From the NCBI RefSeq assembly GCF_055900595.2, contig NZ_CM148325.1: a DNA stretch of 64,000 bases. One strand, given 5' to 3'. Within the stretch, counting starts at the first letter, position 1; every line of letters starts with the position of its first letter. A model generated the notes under the pieces. The model worked only from the letters and a program-made list of their open reading frames with translations. It was not told the DNA's origin and did no database searches. A program made the position numbers and the translations under genes. This document shows positions 14,314 to 51,600 of the stretch, piece by piece.

Positions 14314-14326
14314 GGGGATCTCTCAG

Positions 14327-14335
14327 TACATCGCG
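14327..14335. repeat. IS10 target-site duplication, right copy (TACATCGCG)
   Basis: Identical to the 9-mer at 12989-12997. Confidence 0.9.
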
Positions 14336-14360
14336 GAGAAAAATAAGATGGAAGCTTTAC

Positions 14361-16106
<1,746 letters not shown>

Positions 16107-16410: not shown

Positions 16411-17715
16411 TTAGAACTGCGATTCTTCGGTGGAGCCGGTCAGCGCGGTAACCGACGACGTGCCGCCCTGAATAATGGTCGTCACTTTATCGAAGTAACC
16501 CGTCCCCACTTCCTGCTGGTGAGATACGAAGGTATAGCCATCTTTCGCGGCGGCAAATTCCGGCTGCTGCACTTTCTCAACATAGTGCTTCATACCCTCG
16601 CCCTGGGCATAGGCGTTTGCCAGGTCAAACATGTTGAACCACATGCTGTGGATGCCTGCCAGGGTGATGAACTGGAACTTGTAGCCCATATCCGACAGCT
16701 GCTGCTGGAAGCTGGCAATAGTTTTGTCGTCGAGGTTTTTCTGCCAGTTGAACGACGGCGAGCAGTTATAAGCCAGCAGTTTGCCCGGATATTTCGCGTG
16801 GATGGCTTGTGCAAAGCGACGCGCCAGTTCCAGGTCTGGCGTGGAGGTTTCACACCATACCAGGTCAGCATATGGCGCATACGCCAGGCCACGGCTGATC
16901 GCTTGTTCAATACCTGCATGAGTACGGAAGAAGCCTTCGCTGGTACGCTCGCCGGTAATAAATTCGCTGTCATATGGGTCGCAATCGGAGGTAATCAGAT
17001 CCGCCGCATCGGCATCGGTACGAGCAACCAGCAGGGTTGGAACGCCCGTCACGTCAGCTGCCAGACGCGCCGCGACCAGTTTCTGAATAGCTTCCTGAGT
17101 TGGCACTAAAACTTTGCCGCCCATGTGACCGCATTTCTTCACTGATGCCAGCTGATCTTCGAAGTGAACTGCCGCTGCACCGGCTTCAATCATCGCTTTC
17201 ATCAGTTCAAAGGCATTCAGGACACCGCCAAAACCGGCTTCCGCATCGGCAACGATCGGCAGGAAGTAATCGACATAGCGCGGATCGCCCGGCTCAATGC
17301 CCGCGGACCATTGGATCTGATCCGCACGGCGGAAAGTATTGTTGATCCGCTCCACCACAGCTGGCACCGAGTTTGCCGGATAGAGCGACTGATCCGGATA
17401 CATGCTGGCCGCCAGGTTAGCGTCCGCCGCTACCTGCCATCCCGACAGATAGACTGCTTCAATACCCGCTTTCGCCTGTTGCAGCGCCTGACCGCCAGTC
17501 AGTGCACCGAGGCTGTTGATGTAGCCTTTTTTCGACTCGCCATGCAGCAGACGCCACATTTTCGCCGCACCCAGTTGTGCCAGCGTGCATTCAGGATTGA
17601 CTGAACCGCGTAATTTCACCACATCTTCCGCACTGTACGGGCGAGTAATGCCTTCCCAACGCGGTTGAGTCCACTCTTTCTGTAATTCTTCAATTTGTTG
17701 TGTACGGGTTTTCAT
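16411..17715 (-). CDS. aceA: isocitrate lyase
   Basis: 434-aa product [27 protein letters not shown]... with KKCGH active-site motif. Confidence 0.95.
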
Positions 17716-17744: not shown

Positions 17745-19346
17745 TTACGCTAACAGGCGGTAGCCTGGCAGGGTCAGGAAATCAATTAACTCATCGGAAG
17801 TGGTGATCTGTTCCATCAAGCGTGCGGCATCGTCAAAACGCCCCTGGGAGAAACGTTCTTCGCCCAGTTCGCTGGCAATGACTTTCATCTCTTCGCCCAG
17901 CATCTGGCGGAACAAGGCTTTGGTCACCGGTTTGCCATTACTCAACGTTTTTTGGTGATGGATCCACTGCCAGATGGAGGTACGGGAAATTTCAGCCGTC
18001 GCCGCATCTTCCATCAGGCCATAAATCGGCACACAGCCGTTGCCAGAGATCCACGCTTCGATGTACTGCACAGCCACGCGAATGTTGGCGCGCATACCTT
18101 CTTCGGTGCGTTCACCATCACAAGGTGCCAGCAGCTGATCGGCAGTAATCGGCGCGTCTTGTTCGCGCATCACTTCAAGCTGATTTTTACGGGAGCCGAG
18201 AATGTCGTTGAATACCGCCATTGCCGTATCCGCAAGGCCTGGGTGGGCAATCCATGTGCCATCGTGACCGTTATTGGCTTCCAGCGCTTTATCCGCTTTT
18301 ACTTTGTTCAGCACCTGGTTATTGCGCTCTTCATCTTTGCTCGGAATAAACGCCGCCATGCCGCCCATCGCAAAAGCTCCGCGTTTATGGCAGGTTTTTA
18401 TCAACAGGCGTGAGTAAGCATTCAGGAATGGTTTATCCATCGTCACTGCCTGTCTGTCTGGCAGGACGCGATCGGGATAGTTTTTCAACGTTTTGATATA
18501 GCTGAAGATGTAATCCCAGCGACCGCAGTTCAGACCAACAATATGGTCACGCAACGCGTGAAGGATTTCGTCCATCTGGAACACAGCAGGCAGCGTTTCA
18601 ATCAGCAACGTCGCCTTGATGGTGCCGCGCGGCAGATTAAAGCGATCTTCTGCATAGCTGAAGACTTCGCTCCACCAGGCCGCTTCCTGCCAGGACTGGG
18701 TTTTCGGCAGATAGAAATAGGGACCGCTGCCCTTTGCCAACAGTGCCTGATAGTTGTGAAAGAAGTAGAGCGCAAAATCAAACAGGCTGCCAGGGATTGC
18801 CTCACCACGCCAGGTGACATGTTTTTCCGGCAAGTGCAGACCGCGTACCCGACAAATCAAAACCGCTGGATTGGGCTTGAGCTGATAAATTTTGCCTGCT
18901 TCATTGGTGTAACTGATGGTGCCATTAACTGCATCGCGCAGGTTAATTTGTCCATCGATCACTTTGTTCCAGTCCGGGGCCAGTGAATCCTCAAAATCGG
19001 CCATAAAGACTTTCACATTGGCGTTGAGCGCGTTGATCACCATCTTGCGCTCTACGGGTCCGGTAATCTCTACCCGACGATCTTCTAAGTCCGCAGGAAT
19101 ACCACGAATTTTCCAGTCAGCATCACGAATGGAAGCTGTTTCCGAAATAAAATCAGGCAACGTTCCGTTATCGATATCCTGCTGCTGCTGAATGCGCGCT
19201 GCCAGAAGTTTATTGCGTTGTGGCGTAAAATGCGTCACCAGCTCAGTCAGAAACTCTACCGCTTCGGCAGTAAGAATTTGCTTCTCCTGCTCGCCATACG
19301 GCCTTGTGAAAACCAGTTCATCGGTTGTTGTTGCCTGTTCAGTCAT
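17745..19346 (-). CDS. aceB: malate synthase A
   Basis: 533-aa product [11 protein letters not shown]...; first gene of aceBAK. Confidence 0.95.
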
Positions 19347-28896: not shown

Positions 28897-30186
28897 ATGA
28901 AAGTATTAGTGATTGGTAATGGCGGGCGCGAGCACGCGCTGGCCTGGAAAGCGGCCCAGTCGCCGCTGGTTGAGACTGTTTTTGTTGCTCCGGGTAACGC
29001 AGGCACTGCACTGGAACCCGCGCTGCAAAACGTCGCTATCGGCGTGACCGATATCCCGGCACTGCTAGATTTCGCGCAAAATGAAAAGGTAGATTTAACC
29101 ATCGTCGGCCCGGAAGCGCCGCTGGTGAAAGGCGTGGTCGATACTTTCCGCGCCGCCGGGCTGAAAATCTTCGGACCAACCGCAGGCGCCGCACAACTGG
29201 AAGGCTCGAAAGCGTTTACCAAGGATTTCCTGGCCCGCCATAAGATCCCTACGGCGGAATACCAGAACTTCACCGAGGTAGAACCTGCACTGGCGTATCT
29301 GCGTGAGAAAGGCGCGCCAATCGTCATTAAAGCGGACGGTCTGGCTGCCGGGAAAGGCGTGATCGTGGCGATGACGCTGGAAGAAGCTGAAGCCGCCGTG
29401 CACGACATGCTGGCAGGCAACGCTTTTGGCGACGCGGGTCATCGTATTGTTATCGAAGAGTTCCTCGACGGTGAAGAAGCGAGCTTTATCGTGATGGTGG
29501 ACGGTGAGCATGTGCTGCCAATGGCCACCAGCCAGGATCACAAACGCGTAGGCGATAAAGATACCGGGCCGAACACGGGCGGTATGGGCGCTTACTCCCC
29601 TGCGCCAGTGGTGACAGATGAAGTTCATCTGCGCACCATGGAACGTATCATTTGGCCAACCGTGAAAGGCATGGCGGCGGAAGGCAACACCTACACCGGT
29701 TTTCTCTATGCGGGCCTGATGATCGACAAACAGGGTAATCCGAAGGTTATCGAATTTAACTGCCGCTTTGGCGATCCTGAAACCCAGCCGATTATGCTAC
29801 GCATGAAGTCCGATCTGGTTGAGCTTTGCCTGGCGGCCTGTGAAGGTACGCTTGACGAGAAAACGTCCGAGTGGGATGAACGCGCTTCTCTCGGCGTGGT
29901 GATGGCTGCGGGTGGATATCCGGGCGATTACCGCACCGGCGATGTGATCCACGGCCTGCCGCTGGAAGAAGTGTCTGACGGCAAAGTGTTCCACGCGGGC
30001 ACAAAACTGGCGGATGACGAGCAGGTGGTAACCAGCGGCGGGCGCGTACTGTGCATCACCGCGCTGGGTCATACCGTGGCAGAAGCGCAGAAACGCGCTT
30101 ATGCCTTAATGACCGATATCCATTGGGACGATTGCTTCTGCCGGAAGGATATCGGCTGGCGCGCCATCGAACGCGAGCAGAACTAA
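28897..30186 (+). CDS. purD: phosphoribosylamine-glycine ligase
   Basis: 429-aa product MKVLVIGNGGREHALAWK... (ORF-track start trimmed by 4 codons). Confidence 0.93.
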   Translation: MKVLVIGNGGREHALAWKAAQSPLVETVFVAPGNAGTALEPALQNVAIGVTDIPALLDFAQNEKVDLTIVGPEAPLVKGVVDTFRAAGLKIFGPTAGAAQLEGSKAFTKDFLARHKIPTAEYQNFTEVEPALAYLREKGAPIVIKADGLAAGKGVIVAMTLEEAEAAVHDMLAGNAFGDAGHRIVIEEFLDGEEASFIVMVDGEHVLPMATSQDHKRVGDKDTGPNTGGMGAYSPAPVVTDEVHLRTMERIIWPTVKGMAAEGNTYTGFLYAGLMIDKQGNPKVIEFNCRFGDPETQPIMLRMKSDLVELCLAACEGTLDEKTSEWDERASLGVVMAAGGYPGDYRTGDVIHGLPLEEVSDGKVFHAGTKLADDEQVVTSGGRVLCITALGHTVAEAQKRAYALMTDIHWDDCFCRKDIGWRAIEREQN

Positions 30187-31508
30187 CGCGACAGTTTTGC
30201 CAATAGCGTTTTGCGCGTAATCCCTAACTGACGGGCGGCTTCGGTTTTGTTGCCGCCCGTTTTCTCCAGCGCCGCCAGAATCACTTCTTTTTCGACTTCC
30301 ACCAGCGGCTGAATATCCTGACTTTGCACCAGCGGGATCGGCGTACTGGCAATCGCCAGCGGCAGCTCGCGTTCGGAAATATATTCCCCGGTCAGCAGCA
30401 CCACCGCCCGTTCCACCGCGTTTTCCAGTTCACGAATATTTCCCGGCCAGTCGTAGTGAATCAGCAGATCCATCGCCTGGGGAGTAAACCCTTTTACCGC
30501 CTTGCGATTGCGTTCGGCAAACCGCTGCAGAAAATGGTTAGCCAGCAGAGGAATATCTTCCCGCCGTTGCCGTAGCGAAGGTACTTCAATCGCCACCACA
30601 TTCAGGCGATAGTAGAGATCCTGACGAAAACGCCCGGCCTTTACCTCAGCGGCAAGATCGCGATGAGTCGCCGCAATCAGCCGGACATCAACCGAGATAG
30701 TCTGATTGCTACCGACACGCTGTACTTCGCGCTCCTGAATCGCACGCAGTAGACGAACCTGCATCATCGGTGAGATATCGCCAATTTCATCGAGAAACAG
30801 CGTGCCGCCGTCTGCTTCCACAAAGCGCCCTTCCCGCCGTTTGTCGGCTCCAGTAAACGCCCCTTTTTCGTGACCGAACAATTCAGATTCCAGCAAGGAT
30901 TCGTTGAGTGCCGCACAGTTGAGCGTCACCAGCGGTTTTTCACTCCGTGCGCTACTGGCGTGAATCGCCCTGGCGACCAGCTCTTTACCGGTGCCGGAAT
31001 CGCCGTGGATCAGCACCGTGGCTTCCGATGGCGCGACAAGGGCGATTTCACTGAGCAGGTGTTGCATCGCCGGGCTTTTACCGACCATACCGAACTGGCT
31101 GGCAGACACCGCAGGCGTTTCAGCATCAACACTGTGCGTATGCGCAAGCGCCTTTTCCAGCGTCGCCTGCAGGTTATCGAAATCCAGCGGCTTGATGAGA
31201 TAATCCAGCGCCCCGGTTTTCAACGCCTCTACCGCCGTCTCGACGCTGGAGTACGCGGTCATAATCAGTACCGGAATTGCCGGATTTAACGCTTTGATCT
31301 CTTTCAGCGTGGCGATGCCATCCATCTCTGCCATTCGCACATCACAAAGCACAAGATCAAAAACCTGTTCCCGCACTTGCTCCAGCGCCTGTCGCCCGCT
31401 GTTCGCCAGCGCGACGTTATAGCCCCAGCCGCGCAGCAATGCCTGCAAGATAGTGCAGTGGCTAATGTCATCATCCACCACCAGAATATCGATATTATCG
31501 TGCGTCAT
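30183..31508 (-). CDS. zraR: sigma-54-dependent response regulator ZraR (HydG)
   Basis: Receiver domain, AAA+ sigma-54 activator domain (GESGTGKE, GAFTGA) and C-terminal HTH; 441 aa. Confidence 0.92.
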
Positions 31509-32881
31509 CCTTGTGGGTCCTTACGCGTAATATTGACCGGAAGCCAGAGGGTGAACGTTGCACCTTTCCCCTCCTGGCTTACGACCTGAATTGTACCACC
31601 GTGTTGTTCAACAATATTATGCACAACCGCCAGCCCCAGTCCGGTGCCTTCGGCTTTGGTGGTGAAGTACGGGGTGAAGATGGCTTCAAGCTGATCCGCC
31701 GCAATTCCCTTACCGCTGTCGGTTACGCTTATTTTAACGCCTGCGCTGCTTTCGCTGGCCGTCACGCTAATCACGCCATGCTGACCAATCGCCTGAATAG
31801 CATTGAGATAGAGATTCAACAGGACCTGAGTCAGTCGGTCGGGATCGGCCTGTATCTCCGGCAATGCGTCGTTGGCGGTAAAGCGTAATTGGATCTCCCT
31901 ACTGTTTGCATCCTGGCTTACCAGTTGTAATGAGTGGTTAATCAGCGTGTTGAGATCCACCACCTGCAAAGCCAGATGCGTTGGCTTAACCAGCTCCAGC
32001 AGCTCGCTTACCACGCGGTTTAAACGGTCGGCTTCTTTCGCCATCACCTGCGCCAATTGATGTGCTTCTCCTCCTGCTGGTGCGCGTTCGGCAAAATATT
32101 TCGCCAGCCCTTTAATCGAGGAAAGAGGGTTACGGATTTCATGGGCGACGCCTGCGGCCAGATGTCCCAGCGCCACCAGCTTCTCTTTGCGCTTCATTTC
32201 ATCCTGTAACAGCTGGCGCGAGCGAAGATAGCGGCGATACCAGAAGAATGACAACACGCTTGCCAGCAAGACCGTCGCCAGGGCGAAGAGGATAATCAGG
32301 GTGTTTCTCTGCTCACGCTCTTCGGCACTCACAATGTTACTGGCGTCGAAAGCGATAAAAATTGCTTGTGGTGTCGTGGCATACTGCTGCATATGGCGCA
32401 TCCGGTGCATTCCAGCAGCAAACATCGGTTGAAACTGGCGATAAATTTCCAGAACAGGCTCGCCGTCTGCGCTATCGATCCGCCGCCACGCTTCTTCGTC
32501 TCCCGGATGTAACTGCTGCATTTCCTGCGGGGAATAAAGCTGTTTTCCCACCATGCCGGAGTTGCTATGCATCACGATTGTTCCTTGTTCATCCGTGACC
32601 GCAAACCAACGCACTCCTGGCTGCCCAGCCATTTCTTCCAGTAAAGCCTGCTGCTGCGCATGATGCATGCGCATCCCCATACCGACGCGCGAGCCGGATT
32701 CGAGAGCGCGGATAAGTACACTGCCTTTTTCCAGCAGAGTTTGTCTGGCGGCGGCAGTCTCGCGCCCATAATCGCGAATCACGGTCACCGCAAACAACCC
32801 CACCAGTCCAACAATGACTACGGGAAGGATCGCGCTTAACCATTTTGCTAAGGCATCTTTTGATCGCTGCATAAAACGCAT
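31505..32881 (-). CDS. zraS: sensor histidine kinase ZraS (HydH)
   Basis: Two transmembrane segments, H-box (HEIRNPL) and HATPase_c domain; start codon uncertain, an upstream non-ATG start is possible. Confidence 0.88.
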   Translation of the reverse strand: MRFMQRSKDALAKWLSAILPVVIVGLVGLFAVTVIRDYGRETAAARQTLLEKGSVLIRALESGSRVGMGMRMHHAQQQALLEEMAGQPGVRWFAVTDEQGTIVMHSNSGMVGKQLYSPQEMQQLHPGDEEAWRRIDSADGEPVLEIYRQFQPMFAAGMHRMRHMQQYATTPQAIFIAFDASNIVSAEEREQRNTLIILFALATVLLASVLSFFWYRRYLRSRQLLQDEMKRKEKLVALGHLAAGVAHEIRNPLSSIKGLAKYFAERAPAGGEAHQLAQVMAKEADRLNRVVSELLELVKPTHLALQVVDLNTLINHSLQLVSQDANSREIQLRFTANDALPEIQADPDRLTQVLLNLYLNAIQAIGQHGVISVTASESSAGVKISVTDSGKGIAADQLEAIFTPYFTTKAEGTGLGLAVVHNIVEQHGGTIQVVSQEGKGATFTLWLPVNITRKDPQG

Positions 32882-32908
32882 CTTCTTCTTTGCCTGTTCA
32901 TCCCTTTT

Positions 32909-32928
32909 TGACAGCAGAAATCATGCCA
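32909..32928 (-). promoter_or_regulatory. sigma-54 (-24/-12) promoter of zraSR
   Basis: TGGCATGATTTCTGCTG on the minus strand with correct GG-N10-GC spacing. Confidence 0.55.
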
Positions 32929-33067
32929 TCTTTTATTAGCACTTACCCTGCGCTTTAACACAAAGGCTTAAGTTTCAATGAGTAAAAATGACTCGCTACA
33001 CACAGCAGGCGAGTCATTTTTACTCGTTTATCATGTCATATTGCCCGTCATATCAGCGTTTCGCCGT

Positions 33068-33083
33068 TGGCACGAAAGATGCA
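33068..33083 (+). promoter_or_regulatory. sigma-54 (-24/-12) promoter of zraP
   Basis: TGGCACGAAAGATGCA with correct GG-N10-GC spacing, about 40 bp upstream of the zraP ATG. Confidence 0.6.
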
Positions 33084-33118
33084 ATACCCAAAGTAAGACA
33101 ACCACTGGAGGATTAACC

Positions 33119-33538
33119 ATGAAACGGAACACGAAAATTGCCCTGGTGATGATGGCGCTTTCAGCAATGGCGATGGGATCGACATCTGTATTTGCTCACG
33201 GCGGACACGGTATGTGGCAGCAAAATGCCGTGCCTTTGACCAGCGAACAACAGACAGCGTGGCAGAAAATCCATAATGACTTTTACGCTCAAAGCAGCGC
33301 ACTGCAACAGCAACTGGTGACGAAGCGTTATGAATACAATGCCCTGTTAGCCGCGAACCCACCGGATAGCAGCAAAATTAACGCGGTCGCCATAGAGATG
33401 GAGAATTTGCGTCAGTCGTTAGATGAGTTACGGGTGAAACGAGATATTGCGATGGCTGAAGCGGGTATTCCGCGCGGTACCGGAATGGGTTACGGCGGCT
33501 GCGGTGGTGGCGGTCATATGGGTATGGGCCACTGGTAA
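33119..33538 (+). CDS. zraP: periplasmic zinc-responsive chaperone ZraP
   Basis: Signal peptide MKRNTKIALVMMALSAMAMGSTSVFA, His/Gly-rich C-terminus; divergent from zraSR. Confidence 0.85.
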   Translation: MKRNTKIALVMMALSAMAMGSTSVFAHGGHGMWQQNAVPLTSEQQTAWQKIHNDFYAQSSALQQQLVTKRYEYNALLAANPPDSSKINAVAIEMENLRQSLDELRVKRDIAMAEAGIPRGTGMGYGGCGGGGHMGMGHW

Positions 33539-33539
33539 A

Positions 33540-34241
33540 TCAGAACGTTTTCTCGTTGGGTTGCCAGCGACAGAAATCAGAGTTTGCCACTAACAGTAAT
33601 TGCGAACCTTCGGGCGCTTCCAGCCATGCCACGCTGACATCAACAGAAGAGCGGCTCTGGCGGCGCTCGATATGCGCTATCGCCTGCGAATCTAAATCAG
33701 GTTTAATGGTTTGCCCTTCGCAGGTGGTCACGGTCTGTTCCATCGCATGCCAGCGCCCCTGGCGCAGCACGACTCTCCCCTGACGTAAGGCATCGCTAAT
33801 CTGGCGGATCTGATCAGCACGATAACGGTATAAATCGATTTGGTCGTTAGAAAGCTGCTGCTTTTCCCCATCGGATTCACGTTGCATAAAGCTCAGATCG
33901 CCGCGATCGTCAAAACGCGCGCGAATATTCACCGGCGGTTTGCTGTAAACATTGATATTGATAAGCGTGAGGTTATCGCCCTGCCAGCGATACTCTCGCG
34001 TCGTGGTATCGCCACTGCGCCACGGGCTAAACACAGCAAGCAGATGCACATTATTGCCACTGTCTTTTCGCCAGATACGTACCGCGCCCTGATCTTCAGC
34101 AAATCCACTGGCGGTAAAGGGAGGAAGTGAAGAGTTGTGACTACAGGCAGTGAGAAACAGAGCGCCCGCCAGCATCAATGATCGACGCCAGAAAGACAAA
34201 AGGGGTGAAACCACCCCTTCGTTAAAACTGTTCACTGCCAC
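33540..34241 (-). CDS. yjaH: predicted lipoprotein YjaH (DUF1481)
   Basis: ORF with lipobox-like LFLTAC near the N-terminus; synteny; exact start uncertain. Confidence 0.7.
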   Translation of the reverse strand: MAVNSFNEGVVSPLLSFWRRSLMLAGALFLTACSHNSSLPPFTASGFAEDQGAVRIWRKDSGNNVHLLAVFSPWRSGDTTTREYRWQGDNLTLININVYSKPPVNIRARFDDRGDLSFMQRESDGEKQQLSNDQIDLYRYRADQIRQISDALRQGRVVLRQGRWHAMEQTVTTCEGQTIKPDLDSQAIAHIERRQSRSSVDVSVAWLEAPEGSQLLLVANSDFCRWQPNEKTF

Positions 34242-37898: not shown

Positions 37899-37992
37899 AG
37901 CTCTTGCACTACCTTTGCATCACTGGCATGTTTAACATGGTTTTTACATTTCTCACTGAGCAGTTTTTGAATACAAACTTGCGGAGTCAATC

Positions 37993-48607: not shown

Positions 48608-51600
48608 TTACTCGTCTTCCAGTTCGATGTTGATACCCAGCGAACGAATCTCTTTCAACAATACGTTGAAGGATTCTGGCATGCCCGGCTCCATCTGATG
48701 GTTGCCGTCCACGATGTTTTTATACATCTTGGTACGACCGTTCACGTCATCAGACTTAACGGTGAGCATTTCCTGCAGGGTGTATGCTGCGCCGTATGCT
48801 TCCAGCGCCCACACTTCCATCTCCCCGAAACGCTGACCACCGAACTGTGCCTTACCACCCAGCGGCTGCTGAGTAACCAGGCTGTAAGAACCGGTGGAAC
48901 GCGCGTGCATCTTGTCGTCGACCAGGTGGTTCAGTTTCAGCATGTACATGTAACCCACGGTTACCGGACGTTCGAACTGTTCACCAGTGCGACCGTCGTA
49001 CAGGCGGATCTGACCAGAAGTCGGCAGGTCGCCAAGTTTCAGCAGTTCTTTAATTTCTGCTTCTTTCGCACCGTCGAAGACCGGCGTTGCGATTGGCATA
49101 CCTTTGCGCAGGTTTTCAGCCAGACGCATAACTTCTTCATCGCTGAAGGTACTCAGGTCAACTTTCTGACGAACATCAGCGCCCAGATCGTATGCACGCT
49201 GGATGAATTCGCGCAGTTTCGCGACTTCTTGCTGCTGTTTCAGCATGGCGTTGATCTTGTCGCCGATACCTTTCGCAGCCATACCCAAGTGGGTTTCGAG
49301 GATCTGACCGATGTTCATACGAGACGGTACGCCCAGCGGGTTCAGTACGATGTCTACCGGCGTACCGTTTTCATCGTAAGGCATATCTTCGATCGGGTTG
49401 ATCTTAGAAATTACACCCTTGTTACCGTGACGACCTGCCATCTTGTCACCAGGCTGGATACGGCGTTTAACCGCCAGATATACCTTAACAATCTTCAGCA
49501 CGCCCGGTGCCAGATCGTCGCCCTGGGTGATTTTGCGGCGTTTCGCTTCGAGTTTCTTCTCGAACTCATGTTTCAGTTCGTCATACTGCTCAGCCAGCTG
49601 TTCCAGCTGATTTTGTTTCTCTTCGTCGGTCAGGCCCAGCTCCAGCCAGCGATCGCGCGGCAGTTTGTCGAGCTTCTCAGCTTCAACGCCACCGGCTACC
49701 AGCACAGCACGGATACGGCTGAACAGACCCGCTTCGAGGATCTGCAGTTCTTCAGACAGGTCTTTCTTCGCCTGTTTGAGCTGCATTTCTTCGATTTCCA
49801 GCGCACGTTTGTCTTTTTCTACGCCATCGCGAGTAAAGACCTGAACGTCGATAACCGTACCGGATACACCGTTTGGTACGCGCAGAGAAGAGTCTTTAAC
49901 GTCAGACGCTTTCTCACCGAAGATCGCACGCAGCAGTTTTTCTTCTGGGGTCAGCTGAGTTTCACCTTTCGGCGTTACCTTACCAACCAGAATGTCGCCA
50001 CCGGTCACTTCCGCACCAATGTAAACGATACCGGATTCATCCAGTTTGGAGAGCGCAGCTTCACCTACGTTCGGGATGTCAGCAGTGATCTCTTCTGGCC
50101 CCAGCTTGGTGTCACGGGACACACATGCCAGTTCCTGAATGTGGATGGTGGTGAAACGGTCTTCCTGAACAACACGCTCGGATACGAGGATGGAGTCTTC
50201 GAAGTTGTAACCATTCCACGGCATGAACGCTACGCGCATGTTCTGACCGAGCGCCAGTTCACCGAGGTCGGTGGACGGACCGTCTGCCAGCACGTCACCA
50301 CGTTCTACCGGTTCACCCAGAGACACACACGGCATCTGGTTGATACAGGTGTTCTGGTTAGAACGGGTGTACTTGGTCAGGTTGTAGATGTCGATACCTG
50401 CTTCACCCGGATACATCTCATCTTCGTTAACTTTGATAACGATACGGGAAGCATCCACGTACTGAACGACACCACCACGTTTAGCAACCGCAGTTACACC
50501 GGAGTCAACGGCAACAGCACGTTCCATACCCGTACCAACCAGCGGCTTATCAGCACGCAGAGTCGGAACGGCCTGACGTTGCATGTTCGCACCCATCAAT
50601 GCACGGTTGGCGTCATCGTGTTCAAGGAACGGGATCAGGGACGCACCGACGGATACCACCTGCTGGGTGGATACGTCCATGTAGTCAACCTGGTCGCGGC
50701 TGAACAAGCTGGATTCGCCTTTGCTACGGCAAGTTACCAGATCTTCTACGAAGTGGCCTTCTTCATCCAGGTTGGAGTTCGCCTGGGCGATAACGTAGTT
50801 GCCTTCTTCGATAGCAGACAGGTAGTGAATTTCGTCGGTTACAACACCGTCGATCACTTTACGGTACGGCGTCTCAAGGAAGCCATATTCGTTAGTCTGT
50901 GCGTACACGGACAGGGAGTTGATCAGACCGATGTTCGGACCTTCAGGGGTTTCGATTGGACATACGCGACCGTAGTGAGTCGGGTGTACGTCTCGAACTT
51001 CGAAGCCTGCACGTTCACGGGTCAGACCGCCTGGGCCGAGTGCGGAGATACGACGCTTGTGTGTAATCTCAGACAGCGGGTTGTTCTGGTCCATAAACTG
51101 AGACAGCTGGCTGGAACCAAAGAACTCTTTCACTGCTGCGGAAATCGGTTTGGCGTTGATCATATCCTGAGGCATCAGGGTATCCAGATCGCCCAGAGAC
51201 AAACGCTCTTTCACCGCACGCTCTACACGTACCAGGCCAACGCGGAACTGGTTTTCCGCCATTTCGCCAACGGAACGGATACGACGGTTACCGAGGTGGT
51301 CGATATCATCGACTTCGCCTTTACCGTTACGGATATCGATGAGCTTTTTCATAACATCAATGATGTCGTCTTTGCTCAGGATACCGGAACCTTCGATTTC
51401 GTCGCGCAGCAGAGAGCGGTTGAACTTCATACGACCAACCGCAGACAAGTCATAGCGGTCTTCAGAGAAGAACAGGTTCTCGAACAGGCTTTCAGCGGCT
51501 TCACGAGTCGGCGGCTCGCCAGGGCGCATCATGCGGTAGATTTCTACCAGTGCGCTCAGACGATCGTTAGTTGGGTCGACACGTAAGGTTTCAGAGATAT

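Follow-up and report, generated by a model that had tools for sequence, protein, structure and literature searches.

At glnAp2, the enhancer of the NtrC-family response regulator NtrC consists of two dyads about three helical turns apart, lying roughly 80-120 bp upstream of the sigma-54 promoter, and NtrC acts from it by oligomerising and looping the DNA. At hycA/hypA of E. coli, two sigma-54 promoters stand back to back in one short spacer; the activator is FhlA, the FhlA sites are placed differently from the dyads of the zra locus, and IHF is involved. The ChIP-seq motif centres of this promoter pair, OS27 and OS28, are 128 bp apart (PMC4591121). The zraP/zraSR control region analysed here resembles hycA/hypA in its back-to-back sigma-54 promoters within one short spacer and differs from it in its activator and in a spacer devoid of a convincing IHF site. 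It differs from glnAp2 in that a single enhancer between two divergent promoters would serve both, and in the sequence recognised (GRGTAAAAATGACYC).

The divergent sigma-54 promoters of zraP and zraSR (hydHG) are themselves already known. A review describes both as being under ZraR control (PMC4987338). Zhao et al. (2009) count them among the sigma-54 promoters already known, with positions of -51 and -47 relative to the start codons, and report lower expression of both zraP and zraS in an rpoN mutant (PMC2831329). In K-12, Bonocora et al. (2015) found separate sigma-54 ChIP-seq peaks at both motifs: 39 fold above threshold at TTGGCACGGAAGATGCA for zraP, with 25 nt from predicted start to gene, and 9 fold above threshold at ATGGCATGATTTCTGCT for zraS, with 21 nt from predicted start to gene, roughly a quarter of the zraP signal; both promoters were flagged 'predicted' in EcoCyc in 2015 (PMC4591121). 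Binding of the activator was reported by Shimada et al. (2021) as one strong ZraR gSELEX peak in the K-12 spacer (81/86 clones; PMC8249747) and by Choudhary et al. (2020) as ChIP-exo peaks upstream of zraP and zraSR in K-12, with zraS down by log2 3.18 when zraR is deleted in the presence of zinc (PMC7657598). In Salmonella, both promoters are bound by sigma-54 in the ChIP-chip data of Samuels et al. (2013), and a constitutive activator raises zraP 16-fold and hydHG 3.7-fold in a sigma-54-dependent manner; S. Typhimurium LT2 carries divergent TGGCACGGAAGATGCA and TGGCATGATCTCTGCT elements at zraP/hydHG, like those described below (PMC3844500). An earlier reading of the DNA, made from its letters without database searches (here denoted the sequence-only reading), had presented the promoters as known biology belonging to the ZraR-activated sigma-54 regulon and of value for annotation, and the published K-12 and Salmonella evidence agrees with this.

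The zraS/zraP spacer and its flanking genes

The window, which is the whole 64-kb stretch of DNA analysed, is a 100% match to several complete E. coli genomes over positions 32600-33400, where RefSeq annotates zraS and zraP. By this match the window belongs to the E. coli chromosome, and 32882-33118 is precisely the zraS/zraP spacer, measured at 237 bp where the sequence-only reading had given roughly 240. The K-12 MG1655 locus is orthologous, and its spacer is also 237 bp long and 96% identical. About 11 substitutions separate the two: one falls in the zraP element and two in the loop that joins the enhancer arms, and no change touches the zraS element or either arm. The gene order of the window, purD, zraR (-), zraS (-), zraP (+), yjaH, hupA, includes the purD-zraR-zraS/zraP-yjaH order of K-12.

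The zraR gene (30183-31508, - strand; zraR in RefSeq) encodes a sigma-54 enhancer-binding response regulator with the Pfam domains Response_reg, Sigma54_activat (E 6e-74), AAA_lid_14 and HTH_8. Its translation contains GAFTGA, and residues 141-441 match the ZraR structure PDB 1ojl (E 3e-178); the promoters thus have their cognate GAFTGA-bearing AAA+ enhancer-binding protein encoded beside them. Overlapping it by 4 nt, zraS (31505-32881, - strand) encodes a sensor histidine kinase with HisKA and HATPase_c domains; the coordinates give the longest possible ORF, 458 aa, with the same start as in RefSeq. On the other side of the spacer, zraP (33119-33538, + strand) encodes a periplasmic chaperone and modulator of 139 aa plus stop, in agreement with RefSeq, with a Metal_resist domain (E 4e-22) and 96% identity to K-12 ZraP. 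A 186-codon 'long zraP' ORF from 32978 begins upstream of the zraP promoter and was set aside as an artefact.

The periplasmic sensor domain of ZraS (window 32281-32599, residues ~95-200) is dimorphic in E. coli. Compared with K-12 ZraS, which carries a different allele, the window protein diverges heavily over residues ~95-195, with two indels, and is nearly identical in the remainder. The window allele is found at 95% identity or more in 4183 of 5426 complete genomes, the K-12 form being the minority, a distribution that suggests recombination or diversifying selection acting on the sensor. Elsewhere in the window, arpA (12208-14394, + strand), between iclR and aceK, is annotated by RefSeq in a matching genome as 'ShET2/EspL2 family type III secretion system effector toxin'.

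Two divergent sigma-54 elements are the strongest matches in the window

Each strand of the spacer carries a -24/-12 element. Toward zraP, TGGCACGAAAGATGCA lies at 33068-33083 on the + strand, with GG at 33069-70 and GC at 33081-82; it precedes the zraP ATG (33119) by 51 nt. Toward zraS, TGGCATGATTTCTGCTG lies at 32928-32912 on the - strand, with GG at 32927-26 and GC at 32915-14; it precedes the zraS ATG (32881) by 47 nt. The -51 and -47 offsets of Zhao et al. (2009) are thus the same in the window. GG and GC are 12 nt apart in both elements, the one-turn spacing of the sigma-54 pattern TGGCAC-N5-TTGCW, and the -24 GG dinucleotides of the two promoters are 143 bp apart. The zraS element is identical to the K-12 ChIP-seq site OS39, and the zraP element departs from K-12 site OS38 by a single non-consensus spacer base, A at 33075 where K-12 has G. 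The -12 element of zraS, CTGCT, is off consensus; its GC stands 33 bp from the ATG, close to the 30 bp or so estimated in the sequence-only reading.

The window was scored with a 17-column sigma-54 matrix made from 40 other intergenic E. coli ChIP-seq sites (Bonocora et al. 2015, Table 1), the zraP and zraS sites being left out of the training set. The zraS element ATGGCATGATTTCTGCT (32913-32929, - strand) was the best match at 17.7 bits and the zraP element TTGGCACGAAAGATGCA (33067-33083, + strand) the second best at 17.4 bits, ranks 1 and 2 among ~128,000 positions on both strands of the 64 kb. The next-best score was 14.3 bits, and the median training site scored 15.8. When the window was shuffled 300 times, one match of such strength arose in 6% of the shuffles and two in none (0/300). 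These results confirm that the pair of elements is far beyond chance, and the divergent -24/-12 elements claimed on both strands by the sequence-only reading are found where it had placed them.

A chance origin of the two matches in an AT-rich spacer could appeal to the loose pattern TGGCAYN6TGC, which also occurs inside aceA, aceB and rpoB of the window. The window has 5 matches to this pattern where 1.44 would be expected, an enrichment that, taken alone, is only suggestive. The matrix ranks and the shuffles speak against chance, as do the direction of each element toward its adjoining gene at a typical distance, its invariance across three genera in which the neighbouring bases vary, and the occupancy of both elements in K-12 ChIP-seq. 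Conservation and published occupancy refute the chance reading, to which we assign a negligible probability.

Several weaker matches were recorded elsewhere. CTTGCACTACCTTTGCA (37903-37919, + strand; 14.3 bits) lies in the nudC-rsd spacer toward rsd and lacks GG, and TTGTCATAATCATTGCT (56654-56638, - strand; 14.3 bits) lies in the tufB-secE spacer toward secE-nusG. Neither rsd nor secE-nusG is in the K-12 high-stringency ChIP-seq tables, and both matches are probably due to chance. TGGCAC-N6-TGC occurs in antisense in aceA (17362-17376, + strand) and in sense in aceB (18247-18261, - strand) and rpoB (49498-49512, - strand); these were rejected as sigma-54 sites, scoring at most 11.5 bits and being absent from the same tables.

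A shared ZraR enhancer between the promoters is indicated by two dyads

Midway between the promoters there is an inverted repeat with arms at 32977-32996 and 33009-33028, 20 nt each, 95% complementary and 12 nt apart. Both arms are in turn imperfect dyads, GAGTAAAAATGACTC (GAGT-N7-ACTC). The dyads, at 32980-32994 and 33011-33025, have their centres at 32987 and 33018, and this 31-bp spacing, about three helical turns, brings both sites to one face of the helix. Counted from the transcription starts predicted below, the dyads are at -85 and -116 (zraS) and at -107 and -76 (zraP), within the ~70-150 bp expected of an enhancer for both promoters. Leonhartsberger et al. reportedly described, in 2001, the HydG/ZraR site as a pair of inverted repeats with a short spacer between them, and the inverted repeat of the window presumably agrees with that site. 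We read the repeat, with its two conserved, same-face, dyad-symmetric sites of dimer type, as the ZraR enhancer (32977-33028); at the level of single bases, the dyads are read as ZraR sites from the reported 2001 description together with the conservation found here.

A scan of 32700-33700 found no intrinsic terminator, indicating that the spacer palindrome is not a terminator. An Rfam search of 32700-33300 returned only far sub-threshold microRNA and snoRNA matches, which are caused by the palindrome, and no family at threshold; by this search, known RNAs are absent from the region. The IHF consensus WATCAANNNNTTR was not found between the enhancer and either promoter: the best matches carry 2 mismatches (at 32958, 32973 and 33051 on the + strand and at 32973 on the - strand), and are not conserved in Citrobacter or Salmonella. 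The central enhancer had gone without mention in the sequence-only reading; it would make the two promoters one control unit.

Conservation and phasing in Escherichia, Citrobacter and Salmonella

A ZraP scan with one genome per species yielded 21 loci from Escherichia (coli, whittamii, albertii, sp.), Citrobacter and Salmonella arizonae, which together with K-12 made 22. Both -24/-12 elements are kept in all 22 loci. In a 14-species alignment, the zraS element reaches a column conservation of 0.97, the two dyads 0.93 and 0.99, and the zraP element 0.95, compared with 0.55-0.66 for the DNA between the elements, so that the two promoters and two dyads form a clean phylogenetic footprint. The dyads are also kept in the S. 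arizonae locus, and their spacing is equal in 21 of the 22 loci.

The zraS GG stands 73.5-76 bp from the enhancer centre in all loci. For the zraP GG this interval is 65.5-66.5 bp in Escherichia but 76.5-78 bp in Citrobacter and Salmonella, which have 11 bp more between the enhancer and the zraP -24 element (window 33026-33066). Since 11 bp is about one helical turn, the difference between the genera preserves rotational phasing, and a whole-turn indel fits a constraint on the helix face of the sites. The whole-turn indel, together with the lack of a convincing conserved IHF site, leads us to infer that looping would be direct and phase-dependent and not IHF-assisted.

Predicted transcripts and a model for the control region

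Transcription starts were predicted as motif centre + 19 bp, the rule of Bonocora et al. 2015 (PMC4591121). The zraP start would thus lie at 33094, giving a leader of 25 nt (33094-33118, + strand) with the Shine-Dalgarno sequence GGAGG at 33107-33111 and a duplex energy of -9.3 kcal/mol; the zraS start would lie at 32902, giving a leader of 21 nt (32882-32902, - strand). Both predicted leader lengths equal the K-12 table values (PMC4591121). In the literature searched for published start data, no mapped 5' ends were found for zraP or zraS transcripts.

Together, these data make us highly confident that the E. coli zraP/zraSR control region consists of two divergent sigma-54 promoters around one enhancer of two ZraR dimer sites. 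The elements, their rank, conservation and spacing were computed here, while the literature supplies occupancy by sigma-54 and ZraR and dependence on them; for the strain of the window, sigma-54/ZraR function is transferred from K-12 on the strength of 96% identity. In the proposed mechanism, sigma-54 RNA polymerase would sit as an inactive closed complex on both promoters. Zinc, lead or envelope stress would cause ZraS to phosphorylate ZraR, and phosphorylated ZraR would assemble into an ATPase ring on the two enhancer dyads. Enhancer-bound ZraR would then loop the DNA to either promoter and drive the ATP-dependent opening of the closed complex. Ring assembly on the dyads and looping are inferred steps. 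The outputs would be zraP mRNA, with its 25-nt leader and strong ribosome-binding site, and zraSR mRNA, with its 21-nt leader and weak ribosome-binding site, the latter transcript providing positive autoregulation.

Alternatively, only the zraP promoter might be productive, the zraS element being a weak or poised sigma-54 site and zraSR being transcribed mainly from another, sigma-54-independent promoter. The weaker ChIP-seq occupancy at zraS (9 against 39 fold above threshold) and its off-consensus CTGCT would fit this, the ZraR iModulon did not capture zraS (PMC7657598), and autoregulation logically requires a basal transcript; the source of such basal zraSR expression is not evident from the sequence. 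Against it, zraS expression falls by log2 3.18 in the zraR deletion under zinc (PMC7657598) and is lower in the rpoN mutant (PMC2831329), and Salmonella hydHG rises 3.7-fold with the constitutive activator (PMC3844500). Moreover, the zraS element scores 17.7 bits and is invariant in the 22 loci, and a scan of 32700-33700, spacer included, detected no sigma-70-like promoter. We therefore regard a single productive promoter as very improbable and retain the model in which both promoters are served by the enhancer.

The zraS start codon

The sequence-only reading had considered the zraS start ambiguous, between the ATG at 32881 and a non-ATG start further upstream. The upstream option fell. In the zraS frame, a stop codon, TGA at 32923-32921, lies inside the -24/-12 element and is followed by TTT CTG CTG TCA AAA AGG and then by GAT GAA CAG GCA AAG AAG AAG and the ATG. 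The two CTG codons are upstream of the predicted transcription start at 32902, and none of the last seven codons, which precede the ATG on the predicted zraS mRNA, is a usable start. The in-frame TGA and the absence of a start codon after 32902 exclude a start upstream of 32881, and the annotated ATG (denoted M1; 32879-32881, - strand), the first ATG, GTG or TTG after the in-frame stop, is by this reading of the frame the most upstream zraS start possible.

The ambiguity itself stood, lying now between M1 and a downstream ATG (M4 in E. coli numbering; 32870-32872, - strand). Translation of ZraS from M4 at 32872 and not from M1 would give a 30-nt leader, compared with 21 nt, and a 455-aa protein shorter by three cytoplasmic residues (MRF); this alternative bears on start-codon annotation only and leaves the promoter model as it is. 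An ATG equivalent to M4 is present in 21 of the 22 loci. An M1 equivalent is absent from E. albertii, where a 1-nt deletion destroyed it, from C. sedlakii, from C. amalonaticus ku-bf3 and from seven loci of the C. braakii group, and in Salmonella it is a GTG behind a longer leader than that of the window. Where a strong Shine-Dalgarno sequence occurs (-7.1 to -9.7 kcal/mol; C. braakii group, C. sedlakii, S. arizonae), it always stands ahead of the M4 equivalent, and the nine-base stretch that starts with M1 and ends just before M4 (32873-32881) is, at 0.56, the least conserved of the protein-coding segments in the alignment. On the other hand, Shine-Dalgarno pairing in the window is equally weak for the two starts (M1 -2.5, M4 -1.9 kcal/mol), M1 is the first AUG of the predicted mRNA in the zraS frame and the start in the RefSeq and K-12 annotations, and in Citrobacter R56 an ATA at M4 makes the use of M1 obligatory. 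Weighing these, we put initiation at M4 a little short of an even chance; M1 and M4 may both be in use.

An out-of-frame AUG at 32899-32901 (- strand), at +2 of the predicted zraS transcript, opens a 17-codon ORF that overlaps the zraS start. The 1-nt deletion in E. albertii brings this +2 AUG in frame with zraS, and at +4, C. braakii and Citrobacter On2M carry an AUG that is in frame. The early AUG is not conserved overall.

Two conserved islands on the zraS side

The alignment contains two further conserved islands, ACCCTG at 32945-32950 and ACACAAA at 32958-32964, which occur on the zraS side only, in the DNA separating the zraS promoter from the enhancer; their conservation is 0.92 and 0.94 against 0.55-0.66 in the flanks. 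A gap of 7 bp separates the islands, which occupy roughly -43 to -62 relative to the predicted zraS start, and across Escherichia, Citrobacter and Salmonella they equal the known elements in strength of conservation. No convincing match of the islands to an IHF site, a sigma-70 promoter or a ZraR half-site was found. CRP, CpxR, Fis and ZraR half-sites were also compared with the islands by eye; none fitted convincingly, and this comparison is not counted as evidence. The islands may bind another factor or serve a structural role. That ACCCTG-N7-ACACAAA binds an extra factor not yet described, such as an architectural protein or second regulator, is a speculative reading, which we consider rather unlikely.

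Discussion

The main value of the analysis lies in the accuracy of annotation: the promoters and the enhancer can be transferred to the strain of the window with base-level coordinates. The zraS start is bounded, with none upstream of 32881 and with 32872 as a serious alternative. Two small points, the phasing-preserving 11-bp indel and the conserved island pair, are absent from the literature searched, and the islands are the only part of the region for which that literature offers no account. The indel and the islands leave the accepted picture of ZraPSR regulation unchanged. If the islands do bind an extra factor, it might govern how the zraSR and zraP promoters divide the single ZraR enhancer between them, or supply the basal expression of zraSR.
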